From positions 1 to 57,391 of the forward strand of contig JAZDDV010000021.1 of assembly GCA_043809425.1 (NCBI GenBank): a stretch of DNA of 57,391 nt. Reading direction: 5' to 3'. A model generated the notes under the pieces. It did not search any database. It had not been told where the DNA came from and worked only from the letters and a program-made list of their open reading frames with translations. This DNA comes from Candidatus Micrarchaeota archaeon (GTDB taxonomy: Archaea > Micrarchaeota > Micrarchaeia > Anstonellales > Bilamarchaeaceae). A program made the translations under genes and the position numbers. How positions within the stretch are numbered: position 1 is the first letter of the stretch; every line of letters begins with the position of its first letter. Of the stretch, positions 11,459 through 45,607 are shown in pieces.

Positions 11459-11767
11459 CTAGCCGAACAACGAGCCCAGGCCGCTTTCCGCAGCTTCCTC
11501 TTCTGCCTTTATCTTGCCGACTATGCGTGCAGCCACATCGGCTTTTAGCACTGTTGCTACGTCCTTCAGCCGCTCGTCTGCCTTTTTTACGAATTCCTCG
11601 GATGAGGAAATGTAGATATACATCTTGGTCTTGTCCTCGCTTAGAGAGCCACCGTCCCTAATGCGGTAGCCCACGCGGGCAAAGCTGTCTGCCGCATACG
11701 GTTCTGCTTCAAGTATCTTGGTGACGTCCCCTTTCTTGTCAGTTGCGAATTCGTAGACGCGGTCCAT
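11459..11767 (-). CDS. small protein (102 aa) with ribosomal-stalk-like acidic/hydrophobic C-terminal tail
   Basis: I start it at the internal ATG (MDRVYEF), 4 nt after the stop of the upstream membrane gene. The longer 139-aa ORF would overlap that gene out of frame. The C-terminus is KAEEEAAESGLGSLFG. Confidence 0.55.
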   Translation of the reverse strand: MDRVYEFATDKKGDVTKILEAEPYAADSFARVGYRIRDGGSLSEDKTKMYIYISSSEEFVKKADERLKDVATVLKADVAARIVGKIKAEEEAAESGLGSLFG

Positions 11768-11771
11768 AAAA

Positions 11772-12497: not shown

Positions 12498-12506
12498 TTA
12501 GGCACC

Positions 12507-27499: not shown

Positions 27500-30400
27500 T
27501 TATCTTTTCGTTACGCAACGATCCCTGGTGTCATGTATGTCACACACCAGGCCGTACTGTCTGCAGTCTATTTCTTCATACTTCACAGTGCCGTCTGGGC
27601 TGCTGCAGGTTGCCTCAATCAGGATGTTTTCATCCTTGCATTTGTCATAATATTTGACCTGATGCCCTGCTGGCCCGACAATGACTGGCTGCCTGCTGTA
27701 GAGCCAGCTGCCCCCCTGCAGGTTGGCATCTGTATCTGTGCAGTTGCCTGAAGGAATGTTGTCGCATTTTCCATCAAGACAGCCGCATGGCTCGTAATCA
27801 GCAGTAACTGGGTTCACGCACTCATAGGTGCTGCAGTCAACGATCTCATGGCCATAGGCCTGGCCGTTGAGTATGCAGGTCATCTCATCCAGCTTAACAA
27901 TATCCAGGCACTGGTCGCTTCTGGTCACCTTGTTGCCATTCTCGTCATCAAAGGTTATGGAGCCCTTTACGAACACCCCGTTATTTGGTTGGCCGTAATC
28001 GCTCTCAACGCAATTGAAGTTCTTATAGGCGCAGGCACCTCCGGTACCACCTCCGGAAAAACAGACGCACGGCCCTGTTGAGCCAGTGGTCGCGTCCGTG
28101 CAGGACTGGGCACCGCAGTCGACCTTTAGCTTCTCAATCTCGAAATTATCCTTGCAGGCAGCTTCTGAAAGCTCCGTGACACTATCGCAAGAATCATATT
28201 CCATGTAGCTTGGGAAACCTGCAAAGGTCGAATTGAAAATCCCTCTGGAAGGCTGGGTCACATCTGCATCAAAACAATAGGCATAGGCAGCGCTTTCATT
28301 GCAGGCGCTGTTGTTGCAATCGCAGGGAACGTAGACTGGCTTGGGTTGGCCGTTTTCGTCGCATCTCCATTCCTTCAGCATCTTACTCTTTTCCTGCTCG
28401 GTTCCGCCTGCCCCGTCCACGCAGAAGTCTTTGTAGACAGTTATGCTACTGCTTATTTGGTCCTTCATCAGCACAGTCGACGCCATAAAGATATCCTTGC
28501 CGCTTTTCATGAGCTCAGCATCGCGGTCATTGCAGCCAATGGCAACAGGCTTCAAATCACAGGAGCCGTTGGCACAAACGCAGGATTCATAGGCATCTGT
28601 GGGGCCCACACGGCAAGTGGACTTGGTGCAATCATAGGGCCTGATGAAAGGCTGGGAGCCAAATGGCGGAACATCGCGGCAAGCATACTCCTTAAGCATC
28701 GTAGAAGAGGAGCAGTTATCCGTATAGACTTTTTGAAGAAGAATCTGCAATGGGTCTGCCCCATAGACATTATAGACAACATAGGATTGGTAGAACATGT
28801 AATCCGGGCCAGGGTCATAGTCATTGCACTTTTCAGTCACCGCTGTAAAATCATAATCAAGTTCTGCCTTTTCAACAAGGTCCTTGGCAATCACAATCCC
28901 GCAGAATGGCGCGCCGGTTGCAATAAACGGATTAAGGATTCCGCAGTCCTGCTGCGGGTTCATGGTTGACGAGAAGATGACGGGAAGATTATTTGAAAGC
29001 TGGATCTGCTTGGCACTATAGGTATACCTGTTTCCGCTGCTCTCATTAAGGCAGCATTTTACAGGCAACGCTGCGATTATATCTGCATCAGCATCGCTAA
29101 GATTTGCAGTTGGATACAGTCTTTCATAGGTTTCTCCTGAACTGGCATTCCTGTAGGTGGCATTTGTCATGCCACTAAGCTGGGAACAAAGATAGCAGGC
29201 AGAAGATATCACATCCTTCGGGCATTGCTGGCCAGTTGTTCCTGCAATACAGATGGAACCATCATCGCAAATCATGTCCTGGGCAACACAGCCAAGTTCT
29301 TTCTGGCACTGGACACAGCGAATCTTGCCAGTTGCCTGGTCAATGGCAGGATTTGTCTCATTAACCGCGGCTACCCTTATTGTCATTTTTATCGGCTCGC
29401 CCTGGACAGCTGTACGGCTGCCAAGCTCAAATGCACAGAATTTGGGCCCAAAGGAAAACTGATTTTGCATCAAATTACTACCAACCGTACTACCTGTGCC
29501 CTCTACGCCGACATACTGAATGCCCATCACGCCAGCCTGCCTGAGAGCATCCTTGTTCTTGTAGAATTCAGTGAAAAAGTCCTGATAAAATGCTCTATCG
29601 TTTTCTGGGTCTGGCCAATTGCCGCCCTGTCTGACGTTCAGGAGCACAAGCACTGGCAGGGTGCCGGCGCCCTGAACTTTCTGTATTTCCAGTATTGCCT
29701 TTTTGGATTCGTTTGCAATATCGCTGGCAATGGTTGCTGCACGCTCGATGCTTGTCATTCTGGCCCATTGAAGACTTGCAACATTAGGGCCGACTACGCT
29801 GTTATTGCCCAAATCATAGCGAAGAACTAGAACTTTAGCGTTGTAAGCGAGCATCGGCTCATTCCAGCCTGTTGAGCCTATGGTCACTGCGGGAAGACAC
29901 TTGTCGCATTCAACCCGTACATCACCTAGCTTGTCAGCAGGGACGATTGTTATCACCGGACCAAGGTTATTTGGAAAGCCGCGGCTGTTGGTCGCATAGC
30001 CAGGTCCATATTCATTCTCCTGGTAATTAAGCATGTCCATCCGGTTTTCATAGTCAACTACTGGGATTACACCATTCTCAAGATAATTTATCATGCTTAC
30101 ATCCAAGGTTATTCTTGACTGGGAAGGCATATATTCCTCCTTACAGTAACTACCATAAACACCCATGCCAGGATTTTCTTCGCAATATTTCTTCTGGTCT
30201 TCTATGTTCTTGTCAAATGTCGAGCCGTTTTCATAGGCAAGCGTCTGGTAGGTGCAGGGCTCACACCAGCCGTATTCTTTTATCTCAGGAAGTTTGCCTT
30301 CATTGTCAAGCTTGCAGTCCCCGACGCTGTAAATTTCATAGAAATAGCGGGTGCGCAGTGCGTAAACAGTATTATACGCATTGTCGCCTGCAGAAGAGAT

Positions 30401-32524
30401 TTTATACCAGTCCTCGGGCTGCACTATTTTAATGTCTTCTGTGTCCTGCTGGCCATAGACATTCCGATTTTCAAGAAGGCGATAGGGCGCGCCAAGCACA
30501 AGGGGTATGTTTCCATAGGTGGAACGTTCATCTTCGATATTGATGTCCTCCTTGTTTTTGATGTAGGCCAGAACCCAGGGGCTTCCTGCCATTATTATGT
30601 CAAGATCGCCAACCTCCCGCTCGTCGCCGTCTGAATCTGTTTGAATATGCGTAAGCGCTTCCTTTGCTGCATCAAGGACAAAGAAGTCAAATACGCGCAG
30701 CGCAAAGCCATCATTGTAGTTTCTGACGTCGCGCTTTACATAGTCAACATCTTCCTGCATGTTGCAGTTTTTCACAAACTCCCAATCGCTTATGCTCTTA
30801 TCTGCAACAGCATAGCCGATTACACGCCTGCTGCCATCAGAAACGTCACGGCCAAAGAAATACATGTAGGCTGCAGGAGGATAGGGATTCTGGTCGCCTC
30901 CGCCGGCGAGATTTGTAGCATAACACATGCCACCGCCACCTTGGGTAAATCCTCCGGGGCATTTGCCATCATTTGATGCTACCCTGTTGGCATCAAAGCT
31001 TGTTGGAATCATCTCTATGGGATACCATGAGTCGCTGGGTATGAGGTAATCCTTTATGTTGTCTTCAGGGTACGCTCTTTCATCCGGAGTCCAATCAGTT
31101 GGGCCAAGCATCACCGAGCTTTCCTCTTTACTGCACCAGCCAGTTGGTTCACAACCAGAAGCCAGTGTTTCGGGTTGTGTTGCCTGATGCGCTGGGTTAT
31201 CGTTACAGAATAAACCTCTTCTGAATTGCCAGGCCTCAATCGCCAGTACGCCCAAATTATCTTCGCCTGAGCCCTCGCCGCAATCTCGAGACAATTCTTC
31301 CGTATCATAGGCATCTGAGTCAAGAACGTAGCGTGTTGGGTAGACATCCACAGAATCATAGGTGAGCTTAAGGCTATCACCGTCATGCGATACTTTTGTA
31401 ACCGGCAGACAGATCACGACCTTGTGTCCCTGCTGGAACTCAACATAGCAGTAGGAAGGCACCTCTGCATTGCTATCGTTTTTGATTGCAAAGCCGCGTT
31501 TGTAGGAATCCCGGCTGCAATAGGCCGAGAGGCATTCCGCGCCTCCGCATTCAAATGGCGCTGCCTTGTCTTCCTTGAACATGGTATCAAAATAGGAAGC
31601 TGAGAGTGCATTGGCATAATAGCCGGTGGAAGCGCCACCCCAGGGAAACAGCCTATAGCTTGTGAATTCTTCGTGCCAGTCATCATCAAGACCATAGAGG
31701 AAAGGATAAGTATTGCGGTCGACGGTGCCGGCCGTGGCATTGTCCAGGCAATCGCTTGGAGGAATAACATCCAGAGGTTTGTAATTCACATCATTATATA
31801 GCATGTCAGCATTGCAGTGCTCGGAATTGGCAGCGCAGGGCAGATAATAATTCATATACCTGTCAATGGAACCGCCACTGTTCAGACCGCAGAACTTGTC
31901 GCTGATGGGGAAATAATACTCGTAGGTGTTATACTCGTTAAAAGATGAGCCTGCACCGAAGCGAATGTTGTTTATGGCAACGCCAGAGCGTTTCATGATT
32001 TTCTTCAGCTCCTCATCCATCGCACGCATCCGACAATCAGCATGGTAGAGGTTTATGCTGATTTCCTGCGTCTGTATTGTTGGTCCGCCACCAGAACCCT
32101 CTTCCAGCTCTTCCTTTGTAGGCATTGGCGGAGGGAACCTTGGCCGGTAGAGGAAATCTCCGCAGACCATGGCAACGCAGTCAGGACGCACGCACTCCAG
32201 GTCTTTTTTCTCACCGCAGACAGGAACGACCATGTACTCTGTTACCGGTACGTCGAAGGTCTTTACTGTTCCGTCAGGCAGAACACGCGGTACTTTCATT
32301 GTTCCTTTATCAATGGCAATGGTGCATGTCCAGTTTGTCTTGTCACAGGATTCGGTGGTGTAGGAGTAAGTGGGGCTTTTGCTCAGAACGCATTTTCCTG
32401 TTCCGCTTGCCGGAAACGCCGCATCGCGCTCGCAGCAGGTTGTTTTCTCCGCCTCATTCAGACAGCCTGCCAGAAGCAGCAGGGAAATGAAGGCAGCTAG
32501 GAAAATAATCGTTGTTTTTTTCAT
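27500..32524 (-). CDS. giant secreted cysteine-rich protein (1674 aa), last gene of the membrane-paralog operon
   Basis: The signal peptide ends at a lipobox-like LLLAGC. Cysteine content is very high throughout. The C-terminal 443 aa consist of five tandem Cys modules. Its ATG overlaps the stop of the upstream gene (TAATG). Confidence 0.85.
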   Translation of the reverse strand: MKKTTIIFLAAFISLLLLAGCLNEAEKTTCCERDAAFPASGTGKCVLSKSPTYSYTTESCDKTNWTCTIAIDKGTMKVPRVLPDGTVKTFDVPVTEYMVVPVCGEKKDLECVRPDCVAMVCGDFLYRPRFPPPMPTKEELEEGSGGGPTIQTQEISINLYHADCRMRAMDEELKKIMKRSGVAINNIRFGAGSSFNEYNTYEYYFPISDKFCGLNSGGSIDRYMNYYLPCAANSEHCNADMLYNDVNYKPLDVIPPSDCLDNATAGTVDRNTYPFLYGLDDDWHEEFTSYRLFPWGGASTGYYANALSASYFDTMFKEDKAAPFECGGAECLSAYCSRDSYKRGFAIKNDSNAEVPSYCYVEFQQGHKVVICLPVTKVSHDGDSLKLTYDSVDVYPTRYVLDSDAYDTEELSRDCGEGSGEDNLGVLAIEAWQFRRGLFCNDNPAHQATQPETLASGCEPTGWCSKEESSVMLGPTDWTPDERAYPEDNIKDYLIPSDSWYPIEMIPTSFDANRVASNDGKCPGGFTQGGGGMCYATNLAGGGDQNPYPPAAYMYFFGRDVSDGSRRVIGYAVADKSISDWEFVKNCNMQEDVDYVKRDVRNYNDGFALRVFDFFVLDAAKEALTHIQTDSDGDEREVGDLDIIMAGSPWVLAYIKNKEDINIEDERSTYGNIPLVLGAPYRLLENRNVYGQQDTEDIKIVQPEDWYKISSAGDNAYNTVYALRTRYFYEIYSVGDCKLDNEGKLPEIKEYGWCEPCTYQTLAYENGSTFDKNIEDQKKYCEENPGMGVYGSYCKEEYMPSQSRITLDVSMINYLENGVIPVVDYENRMDMLNYQENEYGPGYATNSRGFPNNLGPVITIVPADKLGDVRVECDKCLPAVTIGSTGWNEPMLAYNAKVLVLRYDLGNNSVVGPNVASLQWARMTSIERAATIASDIANESKKAILEIQKVQGAGTLPVLVLLNVRQGGNWPDPENDRAFYQDFFTEFYKNKDALRQAGVMGIQYVGVEGTGSTVGSNLMQNQFSFGPKFCAFELGSRTAVQGEPIKMTIRVAAVNETNPAIDQATGKIRCVQCQKELGCVAQDMICDDGSICIAGTTGQQCPKDVISSACYLCSQLSGMTNATYRNASSGETYERLYPTANLSDADADIIAALPVKCCLNESSGNRYTYSAKQIQLSNNLPVIFSSTMNPQQDCGILNPFIATGAPFCGIVIAKDLVEKAELDYDFTAVTEKCNDYDPGPDYMFYQSYVVYNVYGADPLQILLQKVYTDNCSSSTMLKEYACRDVPPFGSQPFIRPYDCTKSTCRVGPTDAYESCVCANGSCDLKPVAIGCNDRDAELMKSGKDIFMASTVLMKDQISSSITVYKDFCVDGAGGTEQEKSKMLKEWRCDENGQPKPVYVPCDCNNSACNESAAYAYCFDADVTQPSRGIFNSTFAGFPSYMEYDSCDSVTELSEAACKDNFEIEKLKVDCGAQSCTDATTGSTGPCVCFSGGGTGGACAYKNFNCVESDYGQPNNGVFVKGSITFDDENGNKVTRSDQCLDIVKLDEMTCILNGQAYGHEIVDCSTYECVNPVTADYEPCGCLDGKCDNIPSGNCTDTDANLQGGSWLYSRQPVIVGPAGHQVKYYDKCKDENILIEATCSSPDGTVKYEEIDCRQYGLVCDIHDTRDRCVTKR
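27503..28831 (-). repeat. five tandem ~80-99-aa cysteine-module repeats within the giant protein
   Basis: Each unit begins C-x-[DE]-x-D (CNDYD, CNDRD, CFDAD, CVESD, CTDTD), followed by D-x-C, C, and [VIYP]-[DP]-C. Units 4 and 5 have identical Cys spacing (positions 1, 35, 46, 60). I count about 36 Cys in 443 aa. Confidence 0.7.
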
Positions 32525-33600
32525 TAGACCACCTTGGAAACCATGCGCAGTATGTCATAGGCCTCTTCGCCGAAAAGATACATGAAATATCTTATGGAGA
32601 CAATGGTAACAAAAAGCGCGACCAGCGGATGGATGAGCAGGGAGGTATAGGTTCTGCCAAGCTGCTGCCCGAGTCCTCCGCTTGAAGTCGAACCGGGGGC
32701 GCCGCCCTCCTCTTCGACAACATAGTTGACATAGGCAACTGCAGATGAATAGGTCGGGTAGCAGAAGTTTCCTCCTGTAATCGCAGGCCTGGGCTGCGCT
32801 GGCGGAAGCTTCACAAAACCCGGGTCGGTTACAATAAACACATAGGGAAACACAAGGTAAAAGCCAATTGCAATGGAGATGAAAAGCGAACCTATGGCGC
32901 GCGTTGGCTGGATGGCACGCAGCACAATGCCAACGGGAAGGAAAAGCGAAAGCATGTTTGCATCAATGTAGGAGAGGAAGAATATCTGGGCATTGAGAGC
33001 AATCAGTGCGTTTGTGGCAAAGGTGTTTATGAACCTGGCTGATTCCATGGCCTTGTAAAGATCGCTGACATAGGAACCGGAGAATACCGGGAAACCAAGA
33101 AGGTTGAAGTTGAGGTTCAGCAGATTGAAGTACCAGTTGGCATTGTTAACCATGTCAGCCTGAAGCTCCGCGATGCTGTTTGCCTTGTCCATGAGCTTGC
33201 ATTTTGCAACTGAAATGGCAGAATGGAAATCAGATGTGGGTATCACAATCTTGCCGCAGGAAACCGTACCGCTGATCATTTGATTCATCATTACTGTGGC
33301 GCCGCCGACTATGATAACGAAAAACACTATGAACACGACTGTTGCCATGGACTGGTACATCTCGGTTTTTGCAGAAGTCTCAAGCTCCCTGAGATTGAAT
33401 GCCTTCCCGATGCTATAGAGCGTGCCGTTGAATATCAATGCCACGAAAAGCGCAAGGGCAACAAACGGAAGCCAGGTCATCACACCAAAGACGTCCGCAA
33501 CAAACGTGCTGATCTGCTGCTGGGTGCTTTCCTCTGCCTGCGCTGCCGGCAGGAACAGTGCCAGAAGCAACAGCACCAGTACCAAACGTCTTGTATTCAT
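32524..33600 (-). CDS. polytopic membrane protein, paralog family member 6 (358 aa)
   Basis: Signal peptide, and the shared motifs NLRELETSAKTEMYQ, PVGIVLRAIQPTRAIGSLFISIAIGFYLVFP and a C-terminal FGEEAYDILRMVSKVV. Confidence 0.8.
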   Translation of the reverse strand: MNTRRLVLVLLLLALFLPAAQAEESTQQQISTFVADVFGVMTWLPFVALALFVALIFNGTLYSIGKAFNLRELETSAKTEMYQSMATVVFIVFFVIIVGGATVMMNQMISGTVSCGKIVIPTSDFHSAISVAKCKLMDKANSIAELQADMVNNANWYFNLLNLNFNLLGFPVFSGSYVSDLYKAMESARFINTFATNALIALNAQIFFLSYIDANMLSLFLPVGIVLRAIQPTRAIGSLFISIAIGFYLVFPYVFIVTDPGFVKLPPAQPRPAITGGNFCYPTYSSAVAYVNYVVEEEGGAPGSTSSGGLGQQLGRTYTSLLIHPLVALFVTIVSIRYFMYLFGEEAYDILRMVSKVV

Positions 33601-33602
33601 AG

Positions 33603-34688
33603 TTACACCATTTGCGATAGTTTGCTTAAATCTATCTCCTCACCATACATCCTTGCAAAGAATCTCACCGAAGCAATGGCCCCTGCCAGGGCCAGGCTCG
33701 GAAGCAGGAATGCCCCTACAAAGCTGCGGGCAGTAAGCTCAAGAACATCGAAAAAATCCCTTGGCTCATTATCAAAGAAATCATTCACGAGCCGAGTATC
33801 ATCTGTGTAGACAGAAGTGCCAAGCGCTCCGAAAACAGAGCCATAGCCAAACTCGCTCATGCCTGAAACTTCCTGGAATTTGTCCTTTTCCTTTGCGGCA
33901 TACTCCACGAAAAGCCCGGCATCCCCGGGCTTGTGGATACCCGGGTCATGGAAAATGTCTGCACCGCTGGAAACTATGGAAAACATGGAAAGCAGCAGCG
34001 GATAGACGATGAAGAAAGAAAGGCAGACGGCAATGAGCAGCGAGCCAAGCGGCCTCAGGTAGGGAAGCGAACGAACGATGATTGCGGCAGGAAGGAAGAA
34101 AATTATAAAACCGCGTACTGCAAAAAGGAAAATGAAAAGCGAGTTAAGCGCAGACATGAGATAGAATATGGTTGTGCCGAAAAGCATGTTCATCGTTCCC
34201 ATGCGACCGCCATAGTTTGCAAGCGAGGAGGAAATGGTCCCGCTGAAACCGAATACGCACCAGAGGTCGCAGTGAAATTGGTTTCTGTGCGACAGTATCG
34301 TATAGGCAGAGGCAAAATAGCGCACCACCCTTACCGTATTATGCGAATAGGAAACCGCATTTATAAGATAGTTATGGCCTTCCTCGAAAATGTTTGCCGC
34401 CCCGGTAGGCGGCTGGTCAACCAGCTCGCGCACGCTGTCCACATTAATACCGCAGAAGAAATTAATGCAGGTAAAGAGAAGCGCGATGGACATTATGGAG
34501 ATGACGACCTGAACAACTTCTGTCTTCACCCAGGCAAGCATTTTTGGGTTGTTGGTCACGGTTGCAAAGTAATATACCAGCACAAAAACTATGACTGCAA
34601 AAAATGTCGCGGTACCGGTGATCTGGAGAACCGGACCGTAGAGAAAGCCGTTCAGGAAGCTGGCCTGGCAGACGTCCACGATCATCAC
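33603..34688 (-). CDS. polytopic membrane protein, paralog family member 5 (361 aa)
   Basis: Shared motifs MLAWVKTEVVQ, PAAIIVRSLPYLRPLGSLLIAVCLSFFIVYP and a C-terminal YGEEIDLSKLSQMV. It has a 4-nt overlap with the upstream gene. Confidence 0.8.
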   Translation of the reverse strand: MMIVDVCQASFLNGFLYGPVLQITGTATFFAVIVFVLVYYFATVTNNPKMLAWVKTEVVQVVISIMSIALLFTCINFFCGINVDSVRELVDQPPTGAANIFEEGHNYLINAVSYSHNTVRVVRYFASAYTILSHRNQFHCDLWCVFGFSGTISSSLANYGGRMGTMNMLFGTTIFYLMSALNSLFIFLFAVRGFIIFFLPAAIIVRSLPYLRPLGSLLIAVCLSFFIVYPLLLSMFSIVSSGADIFHDPGIHKPGDAGLFVEYAAKEKDKFQEVSGMSEFGYGSVFGALGTSVYTDDTRLVNDFFDNEPRDFFDVLELTARSFVGAFLLPSLALAGAIASVRFFARMYGEEIDLSKLSQMV

Positions 34689-35698
34689 ATCAGCCTCCCC
34701 AGTGCACTGGCATCGATTTCAGCACCTGCTGCCATTGACAGGTACTTTATGCTTGTAGAAAATATGAACAGGTAGATGATGCTGAAAAGCGTGCCTTTCA
34801 CAAGAACAAGGAATAGTGGTTTTTTGATATGGGCAGCCATATCATTCAGAAGACCAAGCGCGGCATCATCATTGCTGCTAAGCCCGGTCATGCTGCCAAG
34901 GGAATTCGGAGTGTCACCTGGGCTGCATCCGGCGAATTTAGATTGGGGTTCTCCGATACTAAATGAGGGTGAGAGGAAACCAGTTTTAGAATTGAACTCG
35001 TCTAGGTAATTGTAGTCGCTATTCTTTTCCGCAAACGCGTCTGCCGTGGGGTCTATGAAAACAATTGACAGGGGCAGGATAAGGTAAAGCGCTGCACCGA
35101 TGGCAAGCAAAAGGCCGCCTGCTGCCCGGGTGATCTTGAATGTCCTGAGAATTATGCCTATGGGCATTATTATCGTAAGCGCAACATCCGAGATGCTAAG
35201 CAGGGTTTTGAGCGTGTTTAATTCCACGATGCCGATGCTGACCACTGTCTCGGTCGTCGTCACGGCAGGCGAAAGCGCTGAATAGCCGCCGCAGCCAGAC
35301 ATTGTAACCGTGATCATCATTATGTTGCAGGAAAGGGTTTTGGAACCTTCAATCGATACCTTCTCAAGTTCGGTAAGTTTGGTAAAGTATGCCTGCAGCA
35401 TCGTAATGTCTGTGCTTATCTTGGCCTTGGCATCGCTTTGCAAAGTATCTCCAACCGTAACTGTCAGGCCTGCGAATACGCTCAGCATCACTATGAGAAA
35501 CGCAATCTGGTAGACCTCGTCTTTTGCAGTTATCTGAAGCTCCTGGATACCGAAACCCATGCCCACTGCATAGAGAATGGCAATGAATACAACTGCTGCA
35601 ACTATGGCTATGGCGGCAGTGGTCATCCAGCTGCCTGCCGCAAATGATAGCGAGGAAAGCAAAATCACTGCCAGCAGGATTATTTGGATTCTCATCAT
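34685..35698 (-). CDS. polytopic membrane protein, paralog family member 4 (337 aa)
   Basis: Signal peptide, with motifs IQELQITAKDEVYQ, PIGIILRTFKITRAAGGLLLAIGAALYLILP and a C-terminal AGAEIDASALGRLM. It has 4-nt overlaps on both sides. Confidence 0.8.
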   Translation of the reverse strand: MMRIQIILLAVILLSSLSFAAGSWMTTAAIAIVAAVVFIAILYAVGMGFGIQELQITAKDEVYQIAFLIVMLSVFAGLTVTVGDTLQSDAKAKISTDITMLQAYFTKLTELEKVSIEGSKTLSCNIMMITVTMSGCGGYSALSPAVTTTETVVSIGIVELNTLKTLLSISDVALTIIMPIGIILRTFKITRAAGGLLLAIGAALYLILPLSIVFIDPTADAFAEKNSDYNYLDEFNSKTGFLSPSFSIGEPQSKFAGCSPGDTPNSLGSMTGLSSNDDAALGLLNDMAAHIKKPLFLVLVKGTLFSIIYLFIFSTSIKYLSMAAGAEIDASALGRLM

Positions 35699-37821
35699 AA
35701 CACCTTTGCCAGGCCAGGTATCTCTATATCGCCGCCGAGCATCTTTGAGAAAGATCTGATGAACATCACCACCACAAGTGTGTTGAAGATTGGGAGAAGG
35801 TAGGCAGGAACCATGAGTTTCGCAACGTTTATCACCTCTGGTTTTCCAACATTTCCTTCAATTATTGTTGAGAAACCAGCCTCACCCCCCTTCGGCTGAG
35901 GCGACTTGGAACAAACCGTTGGGCAATCAACCCTTAGGGGCGGGTCGTAAAGGTAGGCCTCTTCAGCCACCGCGCACCTAACACAACCCTCGGGGTCACT
36001 CGGGTAGTAATAGACGCAAGACTCAAGGGGATCGGCTATGTTAACCGGACAGGAATAGGCATTGTCGCATTTTTCATGGGCAAGGTCTGATGCCGCCTCA
36101 ACGATGTCTACCTTTTCCAAGCCGCGCAGGCCTGGCAACACAACTCTGCAATCAAAACGGGAATAAAGGCAATTATAGCCAGTGACCGCTTCCCTATACT
36201 GGTGACTCAGGAACTCGGAATAGGAATCAGGATCAGTTGCCTCCAGATCACTACTGCATACGCCGAGGAAATTGGCATCGCCCTTGCAGGATGTGTAATG
36301 ACCTGGTGCCTGGGAAGTGACCTCGTCGCTTACCCAATAACCCGCCAGAGGATGATAGAAATTCCATGAACCGATATAATCGCAATTGCTCTTAAGCGCT
36401 GGTTTTATCTTGCATGCTGTCGGGCAGTTTGCCATTTCGGTAGTTTTTATCTGGTATTCGGCGGGTTTGGACGAATCTATGGGAACAAACCTGTAAAGTT
36501 TGCAATCCTGGCGAAGCCAGCTGCACGCCCTTTGCACATCCTTGCTTCCGCAAAGAGGCGAACCATAGGGGTAGGGAAGTTCGCGGCATTCTGCCGGACA
36601 GACAACTGGCTTTGTAAAATCGATTTTGAGATTGCCGTCCTTATCATAGCTGTAAGGGCTTGCATCTCCCCCTGTGAGCGAAGGAGTCATGGCAAGCCAT
36701 TGACAGGACTGGAAAACGTCTCCGTTCGGAGCTGTAACTTCAGGAACCCGGCCGCTTGCAAGGTCGTCGGCCCACCCTGTTGCATACTGGCTGCAGCCTG
36801 AAGCCGAAAGGGCGTTAACAAGGTCGTTTTGCAAAAAGTACTGCTCACCGGAAGACGGGTCTATGAACCCCCTGTTGCCGGCTCCGGCGACAGGTTCAAT
36901 CTTTGGGACGATTGTGCCCTTATAGGCATAGGGCGCTTTAAGCGCGCATTCTTCAGGGCAGTCCGCACCACCGGCGGCGAAAAGCTTATCGCCATAGAGC
37001 GTAAGCTTCAGCGAAGCCATGTCAAACACGTACATCATTGGCATGGCAAACATTATGCCAAAGGCAATGGCAATCAGCAGGCCGCCAAGCTTGCGCGAAA
37101 AGAAAAATGAGCGCAGGAATATTCCGAAAACGAGAATGAGCGGACCGACGTTGAAGGCGAATTTTTCCATGAAAAATTTCTGCGCGTTCATGGATGCGAG
37201 AAGGTTCTGGTACTGCTCAAACACAACACCGTGGCGCTCTGCATCCAGAAGAGACTCGGCACCGGTTGTGAATGAAAGCGATGCCTGGAGACAGGGCCAT
37301 GGCAGGATCATCGCGGAGCAGGAGGTTGTGAAACGCCGGCTGGCGTCCTCCAGGCTGTCAACCATTGTGTTAAGCGACTCCTTGGCACCTTGTTTGGAAA
37401 CGTCAATCATGTTCTGCAGGTAAACAGTCGTAACAGTCTGCATGCAGTCATCGCCGCAGTTTGCGAGCGCATCTATGCGGCTGCTCTTTGCTATTTCCAC
37501 AAGGGCGACATTTGTTGCGGTTAGGACGCTAACGGCAACAACAACGATTATGGCTGTTGCGATGACCTGCGAGAGCTCTGTTGTTGCCCAGCTCTTCAAG
37601 TCAGGCATGTCAAAGCCGATGGAAAGGGCATAGACAAGGGCGATTAAAACAATGGAGAAACCAATGACGAGCAGGATGGCTGACTGCCAGTTGCCTATCA
37701 AACGTTTTGATTCCTGGATGAATTTTGGTTCTGACGAATCTCCCGGGTTCGTGGTGCAGCTCACCGCGTAGACCGAGGAAACGAAGAAAATGAGCAGCAG
37801 CAGTAATGCAAGTTTTCTCAT
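35695..37821 (-). CDS. polytopic membrane protein, paralog family member 3 (708 aa) with ~390-aa Cys-rich ectodomain insertion
   Basis: Signal peptide, with motifs MPDLKSWATTELSQ, FGIFLRSFFFSRKLGGLLIAIAFGIMFAMP and a C-terminal LGGDIEIPGLAKVL. The insertion at about aa 271-660 has four CPxxC motifs (CPEEC, CPAEC, CPTAC, CPTVC). Confidence 0.8.
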   Translation of the reverse strand: MRKLALLLLLIFFVSSVYAVSCTTNPGDSSEPKFIQESKRLIGNWQSAILLVIGFSIVLIALVYALSIGFDMPDLKSWATTELSQVIATAIIVVVAVSVLTATNVALVEIAKSSRIDALANCGDDCMQTVTTVYLQNMIDVSKQGAKESLNTMVDSLEDASRRFTTSCSAMILPWPCLQASLSFTTGAESLLDAERHGVVFEQYQNLLASMNAQKFFMEKFAFNVGPLILVFGIFLRSFFFSRKLGGLLIAIAFGIMFAMPMMYVFDMASLKLTLYGDKLFAAGGADCPEECALKAPYAYKGTIVPKIEPVAGAGNRGFIDPSSGEQYFLQNDLVNALSASGCSQYATGWADDLASGRVPEVTAPNGDVFQSCQWLAMTPSLTGGDASPYSYDKDGNLKIDFTKPVVCPAECRELPYPYGSPLCGSKDVQRACSWLRQDCKLYRFVPIDSSKPAEYQIKTTEMANCPTACKIKPALKSNCDYIGSWNFYHPLAGYWVSDEVTSQAPGHYTSCKGDANFLGVCSSDLEATDPDSYSEFLSHQYREAVTGYNCLYSRFDCRVVLPGLRGLEKVDIVEAASDLAHEKCDNAYSCPVNIADPLESCVYYYPSDPEGCVRCAVAEEAYLYDPPLRVDCPTVCSKSPQPKGGEAGFSTIIEGNVGKPEVINVAKLMVPAYLLPIFNTLVVVMFIRSFSKMLGGDIEIPGLAKVL

Positions 37822-38804
37822 GCGAACGCCCTCAGAGCCTTGTTAATGGCAGACATGAATGTCACTATCAGCGCTATGGAAAGATTGGGCAGGAAAAACG
37901 CCATGGGCAGGATTTTTCCGACATCCCAGAGCGAAACCCCAAAACCCGTTGAATCGCAAACAGGAGCGCCAAGTTCTGTGTTGATTGGCTTATCCTCAAG
38001 AATGCCCTGGTAGGAGGTGCAGTCTGCCAGCGAGATTGAATCATACATCAAAAAGCTGAAGTTTACGAAGAACGGCAGCAGAGCATAGAAAGCAATGCAG
38101 AGCGCAATCAGCAGGTTGCCGCTGTTTCTTGTGGGCGGAAAAAAACGGAGCAGGAACGCAGCAGGAAGGATAAATTTTATTACGAATTCCTTTGTAAACT
38201 GGAGCATCAGGCTTTGGATTGAAATGCTCACCAGCGCGGGGATGGCATAGGTATTGGAAAGGGTCTCGAGCTGCATTGCATAGACCTTTTTGTAGGCCTC
38301 CATCATTGTCGTGAAGGTGCCTTCAAGTATCGCTCCGGCGGTGTAGGCCCAGCCAGAATCCATTGTCATTTTTATCTGGCCATCGACATAGAAGGAAATC
38401 ATGGAGGCTGTTTTTGCCTGAAGCGTTTTTGTGCAGGAGATCGCGTTGTCGACTGGGCCAAAGGCTGAAGAATAACACGTGCCGGTGACAGGGAAATTGC
38501 TGCGGGAAAGATCTATCAGTTCGGTGGAAAGCAGACAGGAAAAACCGACAAGGCTTGCAAAAGTCACCAGCAGCGCAATTGAAATCGCAAGATGATAGGC
38601 CTCGTCTTTTGCAAGCATGCTGAGCTGTGCATTGTGAAAACCGGTTCCAAAAACATAGGCAATGGTGATTCCAAGAACCGAGATCGCTATGAGAACATAG
38701 AGAAGGGTGGCCTGGTCTCCAAGAATGTCTGCAGTGGTGACCAGGCAGGACTGGGCAAAGGCAATGAATGAAAACAGTAAAAGTGCCAATAGTATTTTTC
38801 TCAT
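37818..38804 (-). CDS. polytopic membrane protein, paralog family member 2 (328 aa)
   Basis: Signal peptide, with motifs NAQLSMLAKDEAYH and PAAFLLRFFPPTRNSGNLLIALCIAFYALLP. Its C-terminus diverges (no GGE motif). Confidence 0.8.
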   Translation of the reverse strand: MRKILLALLLFSFIAFAQSCLVTTADILGDQATLLYVLIAISVLGITIAYVFGTGFHNAQLSMLAKDEAYHLAISIALLVTFASLVGFSCLLSTELIDLSRSNFPVTGTCYSSAFGPVDNAISCTKTLQAKTASMISFYVDGQIKMTMDSGWAYTAGAILEGTFTTMMEAYKKVYAMQLETLSNTYAIPALVSISIQSLMLQFTKEFVIKFILPAAFLLRFFPPTRNSGNLLIALCIAFYALLPFFVNFSFLMYDSISLADCTSYQGILEDKPINTELGAPVCDSTGFGVSLWDVGKILPMAFFLPNLSIALIVTFMSAINKALRAFA

Positions 38805-40021
38805 ATCAACCTCTCCATTCCTGAGATATAGGCTTCGCCGCCAAGTGCAACGGCCACAGACCTGGTTGCTGTCACAGTCATCAGCCCTATGAGCAAGACG
38901 TCAATGTAGGATATGACCACAAGCGAATTGACCTGGTAGAGGAAATCAAACACTGCCTCATAGGCGGCATCAACACTAAAGCCTGCACCGGCAGAGGCAA
39001 GAATTTGGTCAAGGGCAAGAAGCCCGATGCTTGTTACGGTGCCAAAGAAGGCGACCATAAGCTGGTAAATCCAAATGCTGAGGAAGAAACAAACTTCGAA
39101 AAACGGGCCGCAGGGGATTGACTGGATGGTGGCATAGATGATTTCGCCCATGGAAAGCAGGACGCGGATTACAGGATATTCGCAGATGGACTCTATTATT
39201 GTATTGGCATTGTACTTTGGCGGAGAAACCGCGTCAAGGTCCAGGGTTGGAACCTCGATGCCTCCCATCTGGCCGTGGAATATGCTTATGATGATAATCG
39301 AAAGGGGAAAGAACAGGTAGACGCCAAGGGAAATGGCGATGAGCGTGGTGCCGACCTGCCTTGAAAATGGAATGACCCTTAGTATGAAACCCAGGGGCAA
39401 CAGCACCGAAAGCCCATAGGCCTTGAAAAAGGCAAGCAGCACGCCTATTGATTCATAGATAAGAATCACGTTTATCAGGCCGCTGGCGCCTGCCTGAAGC
39501 GCCGAGCTAAGCGGGTAGAGGCCGCCATAGCGCGTAAAGCCATAGCCGAACATAAGTAGGAAACCAAATGAGTAGGAAACGCCATAGGTTGATACCGCAC
39601 GAAGACGGCTCATCCCCTTGATGACGTATTCGTAGGCAGTCACCGCGGCTGCCTGCTGCTCTGCGACGGTTGAAGCAGCATAGTCAAAATAATCAGCGCT
39701 CTGCGAAACGACCTGTTTCTCTGCAAGCGCAGACGTTATGATTTCCACAATATAACCCGATGCCCCTACCACCGAGATTACGATTGCCAGCAGCAGTATG
39801 GCTGCTATGAGCTCGCGCGTCTCAATCTTTACCCAGGCATCAAGCTGGGGCATGGAAAAGGAAACCGCCGCCATCTTTGTAGCCGCAAGCATTATTACAA
39901 CAAGCATAACGACAACGGGGAATGCCTTGAAATAATCAGACTGCAGAAAATCATCAGCAGATATTGAAAAAACTAAAGGCGCAAGTAGCAGCAAGAACAG
40001 TGGGATAAGCGACAGGCGCAT
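38801..40021 (-). CDS. polytopic membrane protein, paralog family member 1 (406 aa from ATG 40021), first gene of operon
   Basis: I chose the ATG at 40021 (MRLSLIPLFLLLLAPLVFS signal peptide) because an ATTATATAC TATA box lies 30 nt upstream. The 467-aa ORF-track version would run through the promoter and into the divergent gene. Motifs: MPQLDAWVKIETRE, PLGFILRVIPFSRQVGTTLIAISLGVYLFFP and a C-terminal LGGEAYISGMERLI. Confidence 0.75.
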   Translation of the reverse strand: MRLSLIPLFLLLLAPLVFSISADDFLQSDYFKAFPVVVMLVVIMLAATKMAAVSFSMPQLDAWVKIETRELIAAILLLAIVISVVGASGYIVEIITSALAEKQVVSQSADYFDYAASTVAEQQAAAVTAYEYVIKGMSRLRAVSTYGVSYSFGFLLMFGYGFTRYGGLYPLSSALQAGASGLINVILIYESIGVLLAFFKAYGLSVLLPLGFILRVIPFSRQVGTTLIAISLGVYLFFPLSIIIISIFHGQMGGIEVPTLDLDAVSPPKYNANTIIESICEYPVIRVLLSMGEIIYATIQSIPCGPFFEVCFFLSIWIYQLMVAFFGTVTSIGLLALDQILASAGAGFSVDAAYEAVFDFLYQVNSLVVISYIDVLLIGLMTVTATRSVAVALGGEAYISGMERLI

Positions 40022-40116
40022 AGCAAAAGATACGGCCAGAATGTATATAATCTTTCTGTTGATCTGAAGCGGCGGCAGGCATAATGATTTAAATTTGAAG
40101 CAGTCCAAATTCATAC
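40022..40116. promoter_or_regulatory. 95-bp bidirectional promoter region between the membrane-paralog operon and the 1127-aa gene
   Basis: The minus-strand TATA ATTATATAC (40043-40051) is 30 nt from the ATG at 40021. The plus-strand TATA TTTAAATT (40088-40095) is 29 nt from the ATG at 40117. Both transcripts would be leaderless. Confidence 0.55.
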
Positions 40117-43100
40117 ATGAAAAGGCTATTGTTCGCATTGCTTCTAATTGGTGTGTTGCTTGCACAGGAATGCCCTGAATGCAAGCAGGTTGCCACATTC
40201 CCAAAATCCAAGCTTGTCAGCGTGATGGATGAGCAACAACATCTGATAAGGGTATTTCTGATTAATGATACTATAAATAGGGAAAGGCTGGCAAATGCAA
40301 CCCTGATAGTATATATCTATAATGAAAGCTTTGGCGATTTTGAAAAAATCTACAGTGATAACAATGGAACTGCCTTTTATGATTTTTCAGACCATATGAA
40401 AGACTGCAGGCAGTACAAGTTTATCTATTGCTACTGCCCGACAGGAACAGGATGCCTGCTGAGCCACTGCCTAAACGCAACAGGAGTAACTGTTGGAACT
40501 TTGCCTACAGACATAAACAGCATAAAAGAGGGCAAATCTCCTGTGCCAGCACCTGCAGCGATAGCGCACCCGGCAAACCTGCCGTCTTTTGACATCCAGG
40601 CCTACTGTCCGCCGCCCGAAACAGGGTTGGGGGTTCCGACTTTCTGCATCCCTCTTGCAATACTCTTTGCAATGCTAAGCGGGGCAATGTATGCAAGCGG
40701 AAGAAACCCGTTTCAGGGATTTGACATGTCTGGCCTGCGCAGCGGCAGACACATAAAATACGAGGCCCGCGGAAGAGGCGCCGGCTTTGATTTTTCACAG
40801 CACCTTATGGCTGCAGGAATGCAGGTCGGGATGTATGCTGCGGCAACTGCAGTGGCAGGCGTAGCTGCGGCTGGAGGAAAGGCTGAGTTTGCTAAAGACG
40901 TTAGGGACTACAGGGGTGGTGCAGCAGACATGGGAAAAAGGGCAGGTCTTGCTGTTCTTGGCCCTGGAATTTCAAGGCTCGTTATGGATTATGGCAGGGT
41001 AAAAGGAAAGCAGGCACAGATGCAAGCAGAGGCAAACAAGGCACCAAAGCATGGATTATGGAGTAAACAAGCTGAAAAGATAGGCTTCTGGGGTGCACGC
41101 GGGGCAGCAGAAAGCGACTATTGGAAAGGCATCAGCATCTCTGATAAAAGAAAGGAGCTTGCGGAGAAGCAGGAGATGGGCCGAACAGGATCTGAAGCAG
41201 GCGTAAAAACCGGATTCTGGTCTCCTGCAGGAGTTGTCCTGGCAGGAATTTTCGAATCAAGCATTTTCGGAAGGGCTTACATGAGCGTTCCGACAATGGA
41301 TGTTGCAGGCGCAAAGCAGATTGCACGCGATAGCAAGGAAGTTGAAAAACAAAAAGGAGAAGGGCAGCAACAGGAACAGATGGGACAACGCCTGGGTTAT
41401 GATCTTTTTAGTATCTTCGGAGTAAAAAGAAGCGATTTTGAAAACAAGGGCAACATGAATCGTGCGCAGGCGGCTTACCAGAATCAAAAATTACAGGAGC
41501 TGGCAACCAAAACCGGAGCAACTATTGTTACTTTCAAACAACCTGGCCAGCCAGATGGTATAGCACTCCAATACGTGGTCAAAGGTGCAGACGGAAAAAA
41601 CGTAAATATTTACTGTGAATTCAGGCAAACAGAAAGAGGCATGGAACCAAGATTCATGCTGGTAGACTCACAGGGCAAAATAAGTAACATTGAAACAGTA
41701 TATGAAAGGGGTAAAGGAACCATAGACGGTCATGGTGTAGAAATAGCTCGTGCTAAAGTCGGAGAGTATGATGCAATTATAGGAGGAAAAATCATAAAAC
41801 AAGCGATGATGGACGACATTGTAAAGGTCGATGGAAAACTCATTTATGACCCAATGCAAAAACAGGAAATAATCCAGAAGGCAAAAATCACTGAGGGAGA
41901 TATCGTAGGCCTAACGTTAACTGGCACTACTCTGCAGATTGGAAAACCAGGAGAGGTAGGCACCAAGGGAGATGTGCTTGGTCTTTTTAAGGGGGGAGAA
42001 GCAGCCCTAAATGATGCGCTTAAGAATGGCAGCGATATGGGAGCTGCAAAACTACAATACAACGAAGCAATATATTTAGTTAAACAGGCTCTTGAGACAC
42101 AAGCAGTGGAAGAGAGAAAGGATGAAATTGGAAAACAGAAGCAACAGCTGGAAAAGGATTTGCTTCAGAATACCCCAGAACAAAAACTCTGGGTCAGTTT
42201 AAAAGAAGAAGGAGAAGCGCAGGAGCACATAAAGGAAGCGAATAAGGCTAAGGCAGCTGCAGACCAGGCAAGGGCAGCGGGCGATGCCGATACGGCTGCT
42301 GCATACATAAAGGTTTACAAGGAAAACATTGCTGAAGCACAGAAACACTTGGATGAGTCTGCCAAGCACATGCAGATGTATGGTGACCGAGTACTTCAGA
42401 CACATGGCGATTCGATAACTTTACAGACAATAGATGCTGTGGCAGTTAGAACACAGCAGCAGATGGGCCAGCTTGACCTACAACTGGCTGCTGGAGCTAT
42501 AAGTAAAATGACCCATGAGGATGAGATGGCTAACCTGGAGAATCGCATGGAAAAACTGAGACAATCACAGGAAGCAGTACAAGCTAATCTAGAGAATACG
42601 GGCACCATAGTTGCAATCTATAGAAATGTTGAGGGGATTGCTAAGGAAGCTGGAGTAGACACTAGTGCAGCTGCACGCACTGGTATTGTTTCCACCGCAG
42701 TCCATGAAAAAGCTTACGAGCAAACGACAGGATTTTTAGAAGAAGCCCAGCAGAGAGTCCAGGCAGCCAGGGAAGACCTTGATAAAAGATTCAAAGAAGG
42801 AAAATTAGATCTGGATGGTTACAGGCACGAGACAGAGAGAATGAATAAAACTGAAGATGATCTGACTAGGATGCAAAGGGACACGAAAAGGATCGAAGAA
42901 AATGCAAGCAGGGTGCCGCCGCACGTGCAACAAGAATACCTGGCGCAGATGCATGAGCATTTTGTGAAGACCAATGCTCCTACAGTGGTGGCAGTTTCAG
43001 AGGCCTACCAAACCACAACAACGGCAAAGGAACTTTATGGCAATGCCAGTAGAATTGATAACGCGGTAATACTTGCCAAGGAAGACTCAGTTGGCCAAGG

Positions 43101-43500
43101 AATGGCAATTCTGAATCATGCAAATCGCGACGGAGCAGATTTCGCTGCACCAAAAACAGGAGGACCGAGTTATTTTGCCGCAATGATTTACGAACGTGAG
43201 CTGCAGAGAATGAACGAAACAGGAGACCCTGCGGAGTATCAGAAGATCCACTCAAACCTCATGCAAACAAGCCTTTTGGCGCAATATGCTGCTGAAGGCG
43301 GGAAACAGGCAAAGATGGTAGATGAAGCCCTAAAAGATTCCTACAGAATGCTGAATGAAAGGGAACAAGTCAAAGGAGAAAGGGAAGCTGCCAAGGAGCA
43401 GGATGAGGAAATCAAGAGGACGCATGCAGAAGAAAGGGCAAGGAAACAAGCGGCGATGAACGAGGCTGCAAGAAAGATGAGGCACGGGCCAAAAGACTGA
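40117..43500 (+). CDS. membrane-anchored giant coiled-coil protein (1127 aa)
   Basis: The signal peptide is followed by CPEC, a CarboxypepD_reg-like beta domain with Cys cluster (about 150 aa in total) and a TM helix at about aa 172-194 (VPTFCIPLAILFAMLSGAMYASG). About 930 residues then follow, including a Gly/Ala-rich hydrophobic patch, a beta-rich domain and a long Glu/Lys/Ala/Gln coiled coil from about aa 640. Confidence 0.8.
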   Translation: MKRLLFALLLIGVLLAQECPECKQVATFPKSKLVSVMDEQQHLIRVFLINDTINRERLANATLIVYIYNESFGDFEKIYSDNNGTAFYDFSDHMKDCRQYKFIYCYCPTGTGCLLSHCLNATGVTVGTLPTDINSIKEGKSPVPAPAAIAHPANLPSFDIQAYCPPPETGLGVPTFCIPLAILFAMLSGAMYASGRNPFQGFDMSGLRSGRHIKYEARGRGAGFDFSQHLMAAGMQVGMYAAATAVAGVAAAGGKAEFAKDVRDYRGGAADMGKRAGLAVLGPGISRLVMDYGRVKGKQAQMQAEANKAPKHGLWSKQAEKIGFWGARGAAESDYWKGISISDKRKELAEKQEMGRTGSEAGVKTGFWSPAGVVLAGIFESSIFGRAYMSVPTMDVAGAKQIARDSKEVEKQKGEGQQQEQMGQRLGYDLFSIFGVKRSDFENKGNMNRAQAAYQNQKLQELATKTGATIVTFKQPGQPDGIALQYVVKGADGKNVNIYCEFRQTERGMEPRFMLVDSQGKISNIETVYERGKGTIDGHGVEIARAKVGEYDAIIGGKIIKQAMMDDIVKVDGKLIYDPMQKQEIIQKAKITEGDIVGLTLTGTTLQIGKPGEVGTKGDVLGLFKGGEAALNDALKNGSDMGAAKLQYNEAIYLVKQALETQAVEERKDEIGKQKQQLEKDLLQNTPEQKLWVSLKEEGEAQEHIKEANKAKAAADQARAAGDADTAAAYIKVYKENIAEAQKHLDESAKHMQMYGDRVLQTHGDSITLQTIDAVAVRTQQQMGQLDLQLAAGAISKMTHEDEMANLENRMEKLRQSQEAVQANLENTGTIVAIYRNVEGIAKEAGVDTSAAARTGIVSTAVHEKAYEQTTGFLEEAQQRVQAAREDLDKRFKEGKLDLDGYRHETERMNKTEDDLTRMQRDTKRIEENASRVPPHVQQEYLAQMHEHFVKTNAPTVVAVSEAYQTTTTAKELYGNASRIDNAVILAKEDSVGQGMAILNHANRDGADFAAPKTGGPSYFAAMIYERELQRMNETGDPAEYQKIHSNLMQTSLLAQYAAEGGKQAKMVDEALKDSYRMLNEREQVKGEREAAKEQDEEIKRTHAEERARKQAAMNEAARKMRHGPKD

Positions 43501-43630: not shown

Positions 43631-43915
43631 ATGTGTAATAAAGGTGTTAATGATGGTGAAAACGGAAAGGGGTTTCCTTCACAGGAAGGGATTTACTTCA
43701 TTTGCCTTGATTCCAAGGCGCGGTTAGTTCTACCATTAGAAATACGCGACGCACTCGACATCAAAACAAATGGAAAAATCCTCATTAGCGTAAGCGTTGC
43801 GAAAGACGGAGAGGTTATTCTACGGCTAGCGAAAGCTCCGGCTGAAATCAAATCACGCGCATGCTCGCGAAATGCGGGCTATGTAGAAAAAAAACGAGGT
43901 GGAAAAAATGAATAA
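43631..43915 (+). CDS. AbrB/MazE/SpoVT-family DNA-binding protein
   Basis: 94 aa. LDSKARLVLPLEIRDALDIKTNGKILISV...GEVILR matches the swapped-hairpin SpoVT-AbrB pattern. Confidence 0.65.
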   Translation: MCNKGVNDGENGKGFPSQEGIYFICLDSKARLVLPLEIRDALDIKTNGKILISVSVAKDGEVILRLAKAPAEIKSRACSRNAGYVEKKRGGKNE

Positions 43916-45517: not shown

Positions 45518-45607
45518 ATGCGACTAGCGGGCAGAATGGCCGGGCAGGCTGCGTTGCCTGCGGGTGATGCCCTTTTTATTTTTTCTTTTTCATAAGAAAC
45601 TAGCGAG

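Follow-up and report, generated by a model that had tools for sequence, protein, structure and literature searches.

TolA of the bacterial Tol-Pal system, a single-pass protein consisting largely of a long helical spacer rich in Ala, Glu and Lys, is encoded together with polytopic partners of an envelope-spanning complex; it is oriented N-in, with its helix in the periplasm and a globular domain at the C-terminus, and the partners TolQ and TolR are of the MotA/ExbB type. In Mycoplasma pneumoniae, a surface-attached cell with a reduced genome, the attachment organelle couples adhesins (the P1 adhesin complex) to long helical cytoplasmic proteins (HMW2), adhesin and coiled-coil rod being separate proteins. 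VirB6/TrbL proteins (e.g. TrwI of R388) are polytopic and have very long helices projecting past the bilayer, and SMC proteins and intermediate filaments share a long, charged, helix-prone region. Here we compare with these systems a gene of Candidatus Micrarchaeota archaeon, the open reading frame (ORF) at 40117..43500 (+ strand) of contig JAZDDV010000021.1 (assembly GCA_043809425.1). The window, that is, the whole stretch of DNA that was analyzed, is 57,391 nucleotides long. The initial annotation had described the product as a type I membrane protein with a very long cytoplasmic coiled coil, a plausible scaffold or ruler for an envelope-spanning machine. By sequence comparison, the gene belongs to a large Micrarchaeota-restricted family with a conserved membrane module and a hyper-variable tail, and is in near-obligate linkage with six paralogous membrane proteins and a giant Cys-rich lipoprotein.

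The ORF is real, and its 1127-aa product contains the following features, given with the evidence for each.

40117..43500, + strand: target gene, 1127 aa, type I single-pass membrane protein (ORF call, family, synteny)
40117..40167, + strand: signal peptide, aa 1-17, MKRLLFALLLIGVLLAQ (Kyte-Doolittle hydropathy (KD) 1.8 in the core after MKR; cleavage inferred)
40168..40626, + strand: ectodomain, aa 18-170 (CPEC, predicted strands at aa 31-108, Cys cluster at aa 97-118, five N-X-S/T sequons)
40633..40695, + strand: transmembrane (TM) helix, aa 173-193 (KD 1.94; C177 invariant, P179, F184 and L187 near-invariant)
40696..40791, + strand: basic juxtamembrane motif, aa 194-225, SGRNPFQGF....R.GRH.KY.ARGRG (net charge +3)
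40807..40878, + strand: Gly/Ala-rich, weakly hydrophobic stretch, aa 231-254 (KD 1.27)
41212..41289, + strand: second weak hydrophobic segment, aa 366-391, FWSPAGVVLAGIFESSIFGRAYMSV (KD 1.26)
41521..41796, + strand: predicted-strand region, aa 469-560, the middle domain of the initial annotation (DSSP on the AlphaFold2 (AF2) model, predicted local distance difference test (pLDDT) < 40)
41998..43497, + strand: helix-rich, A/E/Q/K-rich region, aa 628-1127 (no Cys; AF2 helices, composition)
42289..42939, + strand: three heptad-periodic patches, aa 725-761, 789-837 and 862-941 (above the 99th percentile of 200 shuffles)

Conservation across the family is confined to three parts of the N-terminal module: the ectodomain cysteines, the TM helix (C-x-P...F..L) and the basic juxtamembrane motif. 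The target starts with the expected signal-peptide-like sequence (MKRLLFALLLIGVLLA), and a Met-basic-hydrophobic N-terminal pattern is common to its homologs. The CPEC motif lies at aa 19-22, with C19 and C22 kept in 95% of 107 family members, and within the Cys cluster CRQYKFIYCYCPTGTGCLLSHC (aa 97-118) C105 and C118 are invariant, while C97, C107 and C113 are kept in 76–98%. The single strong TM helix has a Kyte-Doolittle 19-residue mean of 1.94 (family median 2.24, minimum 1.80), and all segments of the target outside the N-terminus and this helix have KD ≤1.27; hydropathy thus assigns to the protein a signal peptide and exactly one TM helix, the combination expected of a type I protein. 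In the juxtamembrane motif, G195 and P198 are invariant and N197, F199, F202 and R220 are kept in ≥90%; its family form is SGRNPF..F..R.GRH.RY..RGRG, that is, G195-R-N-P198-F..F202...R208.G.H.(K/R)Y..RGRG221 in the numbering of the target. The block at aa 176-225, comprising the TM helix and this motif, is the most conserved (2.7–3.3 bits per column), and conservation collapses after aa 225. The Gly/Ala-rich stretch at aa 231-254, also present as annotated, sits in the first decile of the tail, which is basic and rich in Gly and Ala throughout the family.

The proposal that the ectodomain contains a CarboxypepD_reg-like beta-sandwich was not borne out: at E≤0.1 the target matches neither PF13620 nor any other beta-sandwich family of Pfam, PF13620 is absent at this threshold from all 31 family members scanned, and Ig-like or MG-type Pfam matches among these 31 are found in single members only, above E 0.001. 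The AF2 strands at aa 31-108 of the target are of low confidence (pLDDT ~45–50) and neither confirm nor exclude a beta-sandwich fold.

When a profile built on the N-terminal ~300 residues was searched exhaustively with HMMER, 382 clusters (defined at 50% identity) were identified at E≤1e-3, 146 of them at ≤1e-30. The members are typically 1000–1400 aa long, and all named ones are called "hypothetical protein" and come from Candidatus Micrarchaeota, Micrarchaeia or a metagenome-assembled genome labelled "ainarchaeum". The Cys pattern, the TM helix with C-x-P, the consensus (S/T)GRNPF..F...R.G.H.RY..RGRG, the non-conserved tail and the operon adjacency together distinguish these proteins as a new family. 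A fast word-indexed search with the full target found three homologs, alike over the first ~250 residues only, and the same search with the N-terminal alignment found none; given the 382 clusters of the profile search, an apparent "orphan" status in the fast search is not reliable for proteins with low-complexity tails.

Some homologs are 1600–2650 aa long (P0132, P0135, P0114, P0146 and others), and in these the conserved module begins 220–1040 residues into the protein. Among the 31 members scanned with Pfam, added modules were a beta-helix/NosD in three, DUF7107 in nine and a Dickkopf_N-like Cys-rich domain in four. These extra modules, which probably lie N-terminal to the conserved module, are a modular, adhesin-like diversification. 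No recurrent domain accounting for the tails was found in the same 31 proteins.

The second line of evidence is synteny. Hidden Markov models built from the window sequences were scanned over 27 related loci; a pattern of the juxtamembrane motif had retrieved 23 genomic loci. The target homolog adjoins the paralogs in 25 of 26 informative loci: 22 of 23 in a first set, and all three loci retrieved independently via paralog 6, which have the same layout and a divergent target homolog of 1057–1078 aa. Wherever the flank suffices, the neighbors are four to six paralogs and the giant Cys-rich protein, with one exception (L011, see below). The syntenic genes are the eight cluster genes only, each paralog having its own positional ortholog. 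One locus (L014) contains two tandem target homologs, at 6559-9918 and 9974-12126. In the window the region upstream of the target and the seven other cluster genes are arranged as follows.

40022..40116, no strand: divergent intergenic region, 95 bp (TATA-like tatataat at 40044-40051, tttaaattt at 40088-40096)
38801..40021, - strand: paralog 1, five TM helices, 406 aa from ATG 40021 (aligns with the other five; positional ortholog in relatives)
37818..38804, - strand: paralog 2, 328 aa (paralog alignment, positional ortholog)
35695..37821, - strand: paralog 3, 708 aa, with a 28-Cys ectodomain inserted before the last TM helix (paralog alignment, positional ortholog)
34685..35698, - strand: paralog 4, 337 aa (paralog alignment, positional ortholog)
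33603..34688, - strand: paralog 5, 361 aa (paralog alignment, positional ortholog)
32524..33600, - strand: paralog 6, 358 aa, modeled with AF2 (paralog alignment; fold search)
27500..32524, - strand: giant Cys-rich protein, 1674 aa, 83 Cys, lipobox-type signal peptide LLLLAG|C (homologs in 19 related loci)

Judging by their alignment, the six minus-strand membrane proteins are true paralogs, anciently diverged and positionally conserved. Common to all six are a signal peptide, two TM helices that flank a short K.E loop, a helical ectodomain, another pair of TM helices with the motif LP.G..LR....(T/S)R..G.L(L/F)IA....Y...P, an ectodomain that varies and the final TM helix. Five of the six end in an acidic C-terminal tail, G(G/E)(E/D)x(I/Y)(D/E)..L..(L/V/M), and this peptide is very well conserved among the paralog-6 orthologs (LFGEE[AS]YD[IL]LRM). 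The AF2 model of paralog 6, calculated from 14 sequences, has a pLDDT of 65 and a predicted TM-score (pTM) of 0.60, and its confident parts contain helices of 28–54 residues, longer than the thickness of a bilayer; Foldseek comparison of this model with the PDB and BFVD yielded nothing significant (best E 0.29). The homologs of the giant protein in the 19 related loci have ~1400–1575 aa and 53–96 Cys, and BLAST of the giant protein against itself revealed no internal repeats. BLAST detected no similarity of the target ectodomain to the giant protein or to the ectodomain of paralog 3. A 134-aa ORF at 37019-37423 (+), antisense to paralog 3 and with 46–56% identity in five loci, is most likely a shadow of the sense coding sequence and not a gene.

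Two layouts of the cluster were found, divergent (as in the window) and co-directional, the latter with the target last after the giant gene, from which it is separated by 7–63 bp in most loci; the target is the last gene of the paralog operon in half of the lineages. In the 12 loci with the divergent layout (the window and 11 relatives) the gap is 80–113 bp. The gap of 95 bp given initially is exact if the upstream gene starts at ATG 40021 (MRLSLIPLF...) and not at TTG 40204. The latter, the mechanical start of the upstream ORF, overlaps the target by 88 nt, while the internal ATG 40021 begins a signal peptide (MRLSLIPLFLLLLAPL) and is preceded by a TATA-like box at a distance of 26 nt; it is the biologically plausible start of paralog 1, so that translation probably does not include the 61 additional residues. 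The center of the TATA-like box is 26 nt from the paralog-1 ATG in all 12 divergent loci, and a second TATA-like box 24–26 nt before the target ATG was found in nine of them by a regular expression, with a similar A/T-rich sequence seen by eye in two more. Given general archaeal promoter architecture, this pattern fits two back-to-back promoters producing leaderless mRNAs. The functional link of the target with the membrane-paralog operon, for which co-regulation had been considered likely, is therefore strongly supported by the adjacency, by the common operon in half of the lineages and by the conserved TATA-like boxes where the genes diverge. Downstream of the target, the window contains a 94-aa AbrB/MazE-like (SpoVT-AbrB) ORF (43631-43915, +), and relatives (L001, L002, L003 and L004) have a PadR-family gene of ~104 aa in this position; either could be a regulator of the cluster. 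All three relatives for which downstream genes are called have the PadR-family gene after the target.

Tentatively, and with a little less than even confidence, we favor the reading that the target is the type I subunit of an envelope complex that is specific to Micrarchaeota and lacks annotation, with docking through its TM helix, a cytoplasmic spacer tail and a role in host contact or adhesion. Since the TM helix is conserved far beyond what a passive anchor needs, we propose that together with the RGRG-type juxtamembrane segment it would dock the target into a hetero-oligomeric core of the six paralogs; the acidic C-termini of five of these could be the docking site with which the basic motif possibly pairs. 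Together with paralog 3 and the giant lipoprotein, the ectodomain would make up a disulfide-rich outer layer, and the tail of ~900 aa would be a cytoplasmic, flexible, helix-rich spacer or scaffold, partly coiled or disordered, in which selection would act on length and composition and not on sequence. At the weakest step of this scheme, the whole module would be a surface adhesion or host-contact apparatus of ectosymbiotic archaea, a role preferred because cultured Micrarchaeota live as ectosymbionts, the variable ectodomains resemble adhesins and evolution is fast. Of the functions proposed initially, "scaffold of an envelope machine" is, we infer, the most reasonable reading. A more specific version, in which the eight genes encode an ATPase-less trans-envelope apparatus at the host interface, serving attachment and possibly lipid or metabolite exchange, with the target coupling this interface to the cytoplasm via its flexible tail, is speculative and on the unlikely side.

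Several observations weigh against the favored reading. The locus L011 holds a 973-aa target homolog (9917-12838) with no paralogs within 10 kb, the sole exception to the linkage. The full-length AF2 model of the target is poor, making its secondary structure indicative only, and a second hydrophobic segment in some homologs points to another topology (both considered below). Searches of Pfam and NCBIfam identified no ATPase or other energy source encoded in the cluster at the loci examined. Host contact is tied to the cluster only by the way of life of the phylum and by the resemblance of the Cys-rich ectodomains to adhesins. Finally, the searches, which covered Pfam, NCBIfam, PHROGs, PDB sequences and, with Foldseek, the PDB and BFVD, have limited sensitivity for remote homology.

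The main rival accepts the same complex and gives it a housekeeping role, such as S-layer or envelope anchoring, membrane shape, division, or uptake of lipids or metabolites, with the tail linking the envelope to cytoplasmic structures; we regard it as possible, though doubtful. The cluster lies on the chromosome at a single locus, occurs widely in the phylum and has ordinary housekeeping genes on its flanks, with FtsZ 17 kb away in the window, and the anchor of the Micrarchaeota S-layer protein is unproven (bioRxiv 10.1101/2021.04.28.441871). However, the flanks are not conserved from one genome to another, which makes it probable that FtsZ is near by chance, and the variable, adhesin-like N-terminal additions and the fast evolution fit surface interaction better.

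A second alternative concerns the topology. For the envelope-complex reading, the Cys-rich N-terminal ectodomain lies outside, followed by one TM helix, and the tail is most probably cytoplasmic, in agreement with the type I layout originally suggested. The segment directly after the TM helix is rich in Arg and Lys (positive-inside). Cysteines make up 4.6% of the ectodomains across the family and 0.15% of the tails, a 30-fold difference; for comparison, clearly extracellular proteins of the cluster have 4–5% (28/708 and 83/1674) and cytoplasmic housekeeping proteins of the window 0.5–2%. The ratio of observed to expected N-X-S/T sequons is 2.17 in the ectodomains and 0.91 in the tails (for the target ectodomain, five observed vs 1.1 expected). 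Because the tail is almost Cys-free and not enriched in sequons, it probably faces the cytoplasm. If, alternatively, the segment at aa ~366-391 spanned the membrane, the helical C-terminus of ~730 aa would be extracellular, a TolA-like or M-protein-like stalk beside the giant lipoprotein. Helical stalks rich in Ala, Glu and Lys are typical of extracytoplasmic spacers, e.g. domain II of TolA, and the segment recurs ~161 aa past the juxtamembrane motif: in 120 homologs its KD is ≥1.6, i.e. of TM strength, in 23, between 1.2 and 1.6 in 60, and <1.2 in 37. We nevertheless consider this two-TM topology improbable, as the segment of the target reaches a KD of only 1.26, variable topology within one family is unlikely, the tail is nearly devoid of Cys, of which every clearly extracellular part of the cluster has 4–5%, and sequons are not enriched in it. 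The segment at aa 366-391 may instead be a peripheral or re-entrant membrane-associated helix.

According to a third alternative, equally improbable in our estimate, the C-terminal ~480 aa form a single SMC- or intermediate-filament-like coiled-coil rod, a rigid scaffold or ruler of an envelope-spanning machine. Part of the description behind it holds. The last ~490 aa are indeed rich in Ala (14.4%), Glu (11.3%), Gln (8.2%) and Lys (7.8%). The AF2 model of the full-length target, based on a four-sequence alignment and with a pLDDT of 35.8, was used for secondary structure only; it shows strands at aa 31-108, the TM helix, helices at aa 226-306 and a few strands at aa 469-516, and for aa 628-1122 it predicts ~87% helix, as ~16 helices of 6–58 residues with low pLDDT. 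Heptad periodicity was assessed with a custom register score against 200 shuffles at the 99% null level, a test distinct from COILS, MARCOIL or DeepCoil. Three patches (~165 aa in total) exceeded this level, and the rest of the region annotated as ~480 aa of heptad sequence fell below it. The only sequence match of the target in the PDB, a weak one, is a myosin-rod chimera (E 0.46). On the other side, the heptad-positive windows amount to ~9% of the tail windows of the target, so that periodicity is not sustained over ~480 aa as a coiled-coil rod demands, and the predicted helices are broken every 6–58 residues. Nor is the signal characteristic of the family: in the median member 3% of windows lie above the 99% null, only two of 118 members exceed 10%, and the target itself is among the top six. 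The target has no match to SMC_N, hinge or AAA families in Pfam or NCBIfam at E≤0.1 and none to Pfam Filament, the intermediate filament rod, that is, neither ATPase heads and hinge nor rod motifs of intermediate filaments, and the sequence of its tail is not conserved within the family. A ruler is difficult to reconcile with tail lengths that span 684–1884 aa (mean 965 aa, interquartile range 818–1051). The C-terminal region is thus helical and locally coiled-coil-like, whereas a continuous coiled coil of 480 aa is not supported, and the "coiled-coil ruler" is too simple a reading. The beta-rich middle domain placed before this region fared in a mixed way: strands are predicted at aa 469-516 and a few short ones up to ~560, but all with pLDDT <40, and aa 469-560 show no sequence conservation in the family alignment or in phmmer comparison with relatives.

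What is kept in the tails is their composition, which follows the same gradient family-wide: a basic, Gly/Ala-rich first decile, an acidic middle and a very highly charged end, which contains Pro and is poor in hydrophobic residues. BLAST of the tail against itself revealed no internal repeats, and phmmer with four segments of the target tail found no match among ~180 relatives; the closest relative of the target has 39% identity in the N-terminal module. In pairs with 50–60% identity in this module the tails are alignable in 61%, at ~26% identity, and in pairs with 30–40% identity they are alignable in 1%. These comparisons indicate that the divergence of the tails reflects evolutionary rate and not independent origin, the tail apparently evolving at two to three times the rate of the membrane module. 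It behaves like a spacer constrained in length and composition.

The remaining alternative, that the cluster is a module derived from a virus or mobile element, e.g. an integrated element with entry or fusion proteins, is very improbable and was rejected: archaeal viruses and integrated elements commonly encode large Cys-rich surface proteins that evolve fast, as well as orphan membrane proteins, and the genomic neighborhood of the cluster differs between genomes, but a scan of 2.9 million IMG/VR contigs detected no relative, none of the eight proteins has a PHROG match, the GC content of the cluster is unremarkable with no integrase or tRNA gene nearby, and most Micrarchaeota sampled have one locus per genome.

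The rest of the window is ordinary archaeal chromosome with even GC content, encoding GyrA, FtsZ, HisG, HisRS and an MFS transporter; neither tRNA genes nor Rfam families were detected in it. A 1438-aa protein at 17482-21798 (+), with Laminin_G_3, NosD/beta-helix, a weak CarboxypepD_reg match and 29 Cys, is probably another surface protein and lies outside the syntenic cluster. At 44879-46846 (+), a short-form HisG (212 aa) is encoded directly upstream of a 412-aa HisRS-type gene with an anticodon-binding domain, for which HisRS and a HisZ partner of the short HisG are both conceivable.

None of the eight cluster proteins could be assigned to a family with the databases searched: there is no match in Pfam, NCBIfam or PHROGs and no significant one among PDB sequences, where the paralog profile and the giant protein matched nothing. 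In the searchable literature, including that on the Micrarchaeota S-layer, on cryo-electron tomography of DPANN archaea and on attachment organelles, the cluster is not described. Tomography of Micrarchaeota has revealed unexplained membrane-proximal filaments and cage-like assemblies (PMC11329633), which nothing links to the cluster. In the literature searched on how DPANN archaea attach to their hosts and feed from them, no symbiont-encoded contact machinery of Micrarchaeota was identified. The cluster is a concrete candidate for it, a widespread, syntenic and phylum-restricted eight-gene envelope module whose motifs can be mutated and modeled; even if the idea of host contact is wrong, it is a clean target for structural and proteomic work in the few cultured Micrarchaeota.

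Compared with the systems described at the outset, the cluster resembles each of them in part. The identity of the paralogs with VirB6/TrbL, suggested by their polytopic architecture and long helices, was rejected: alignment of the paralog profile with R388 TrwI by hhalign gave a probability of 0.06%, Pfam TrbL was not matched, and the R388 type IV secretion system chain found at rank 5 of the Foldseek list for paralog 6 is not significant (E 0.84, TM-score 0.20–0.25); moreover, no VirB4-type ATPase, VirB2 pilin or other type IV secretion genes were found in the cluster. With SMC proteins and intermediate filaments the target has in common the long, charged, helix-prone region, but it lacks Walker A/B heads, a hinge and the intermediate filament rod consensus, has interrupted heptads, and begins with a signal peptide and an ectodomain that belong to a membrane-anchoring N-terminal module. 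The attachment organelle of M. pneumoniae is a functional analogy only: there is no relation in sequence or fold, no polar organelle is known for the cluster, adhesin and coiled-coil rod are separate proteins in Mycoplasma, and in the target heptad periodicity is confined to three patches. TolA is likened to the target by analogy, as a single-pass protein with a long helical spacer and polytopic partners; no match to TolA, TolQ, TolR, TolA_C or MotA_ExbB was found in the cluster with Pfam or NCBIfam. The orientation of the two proteins is opposite: whereas TolA extends its helix and a globular C-terminal domain into the periplasm from a cytoplasmic N-terminus, the target has an extracellular Cys-rich N-terminus and a tail that most probably reaches into the cytoplasm and ends in a charged, disordered sequence.

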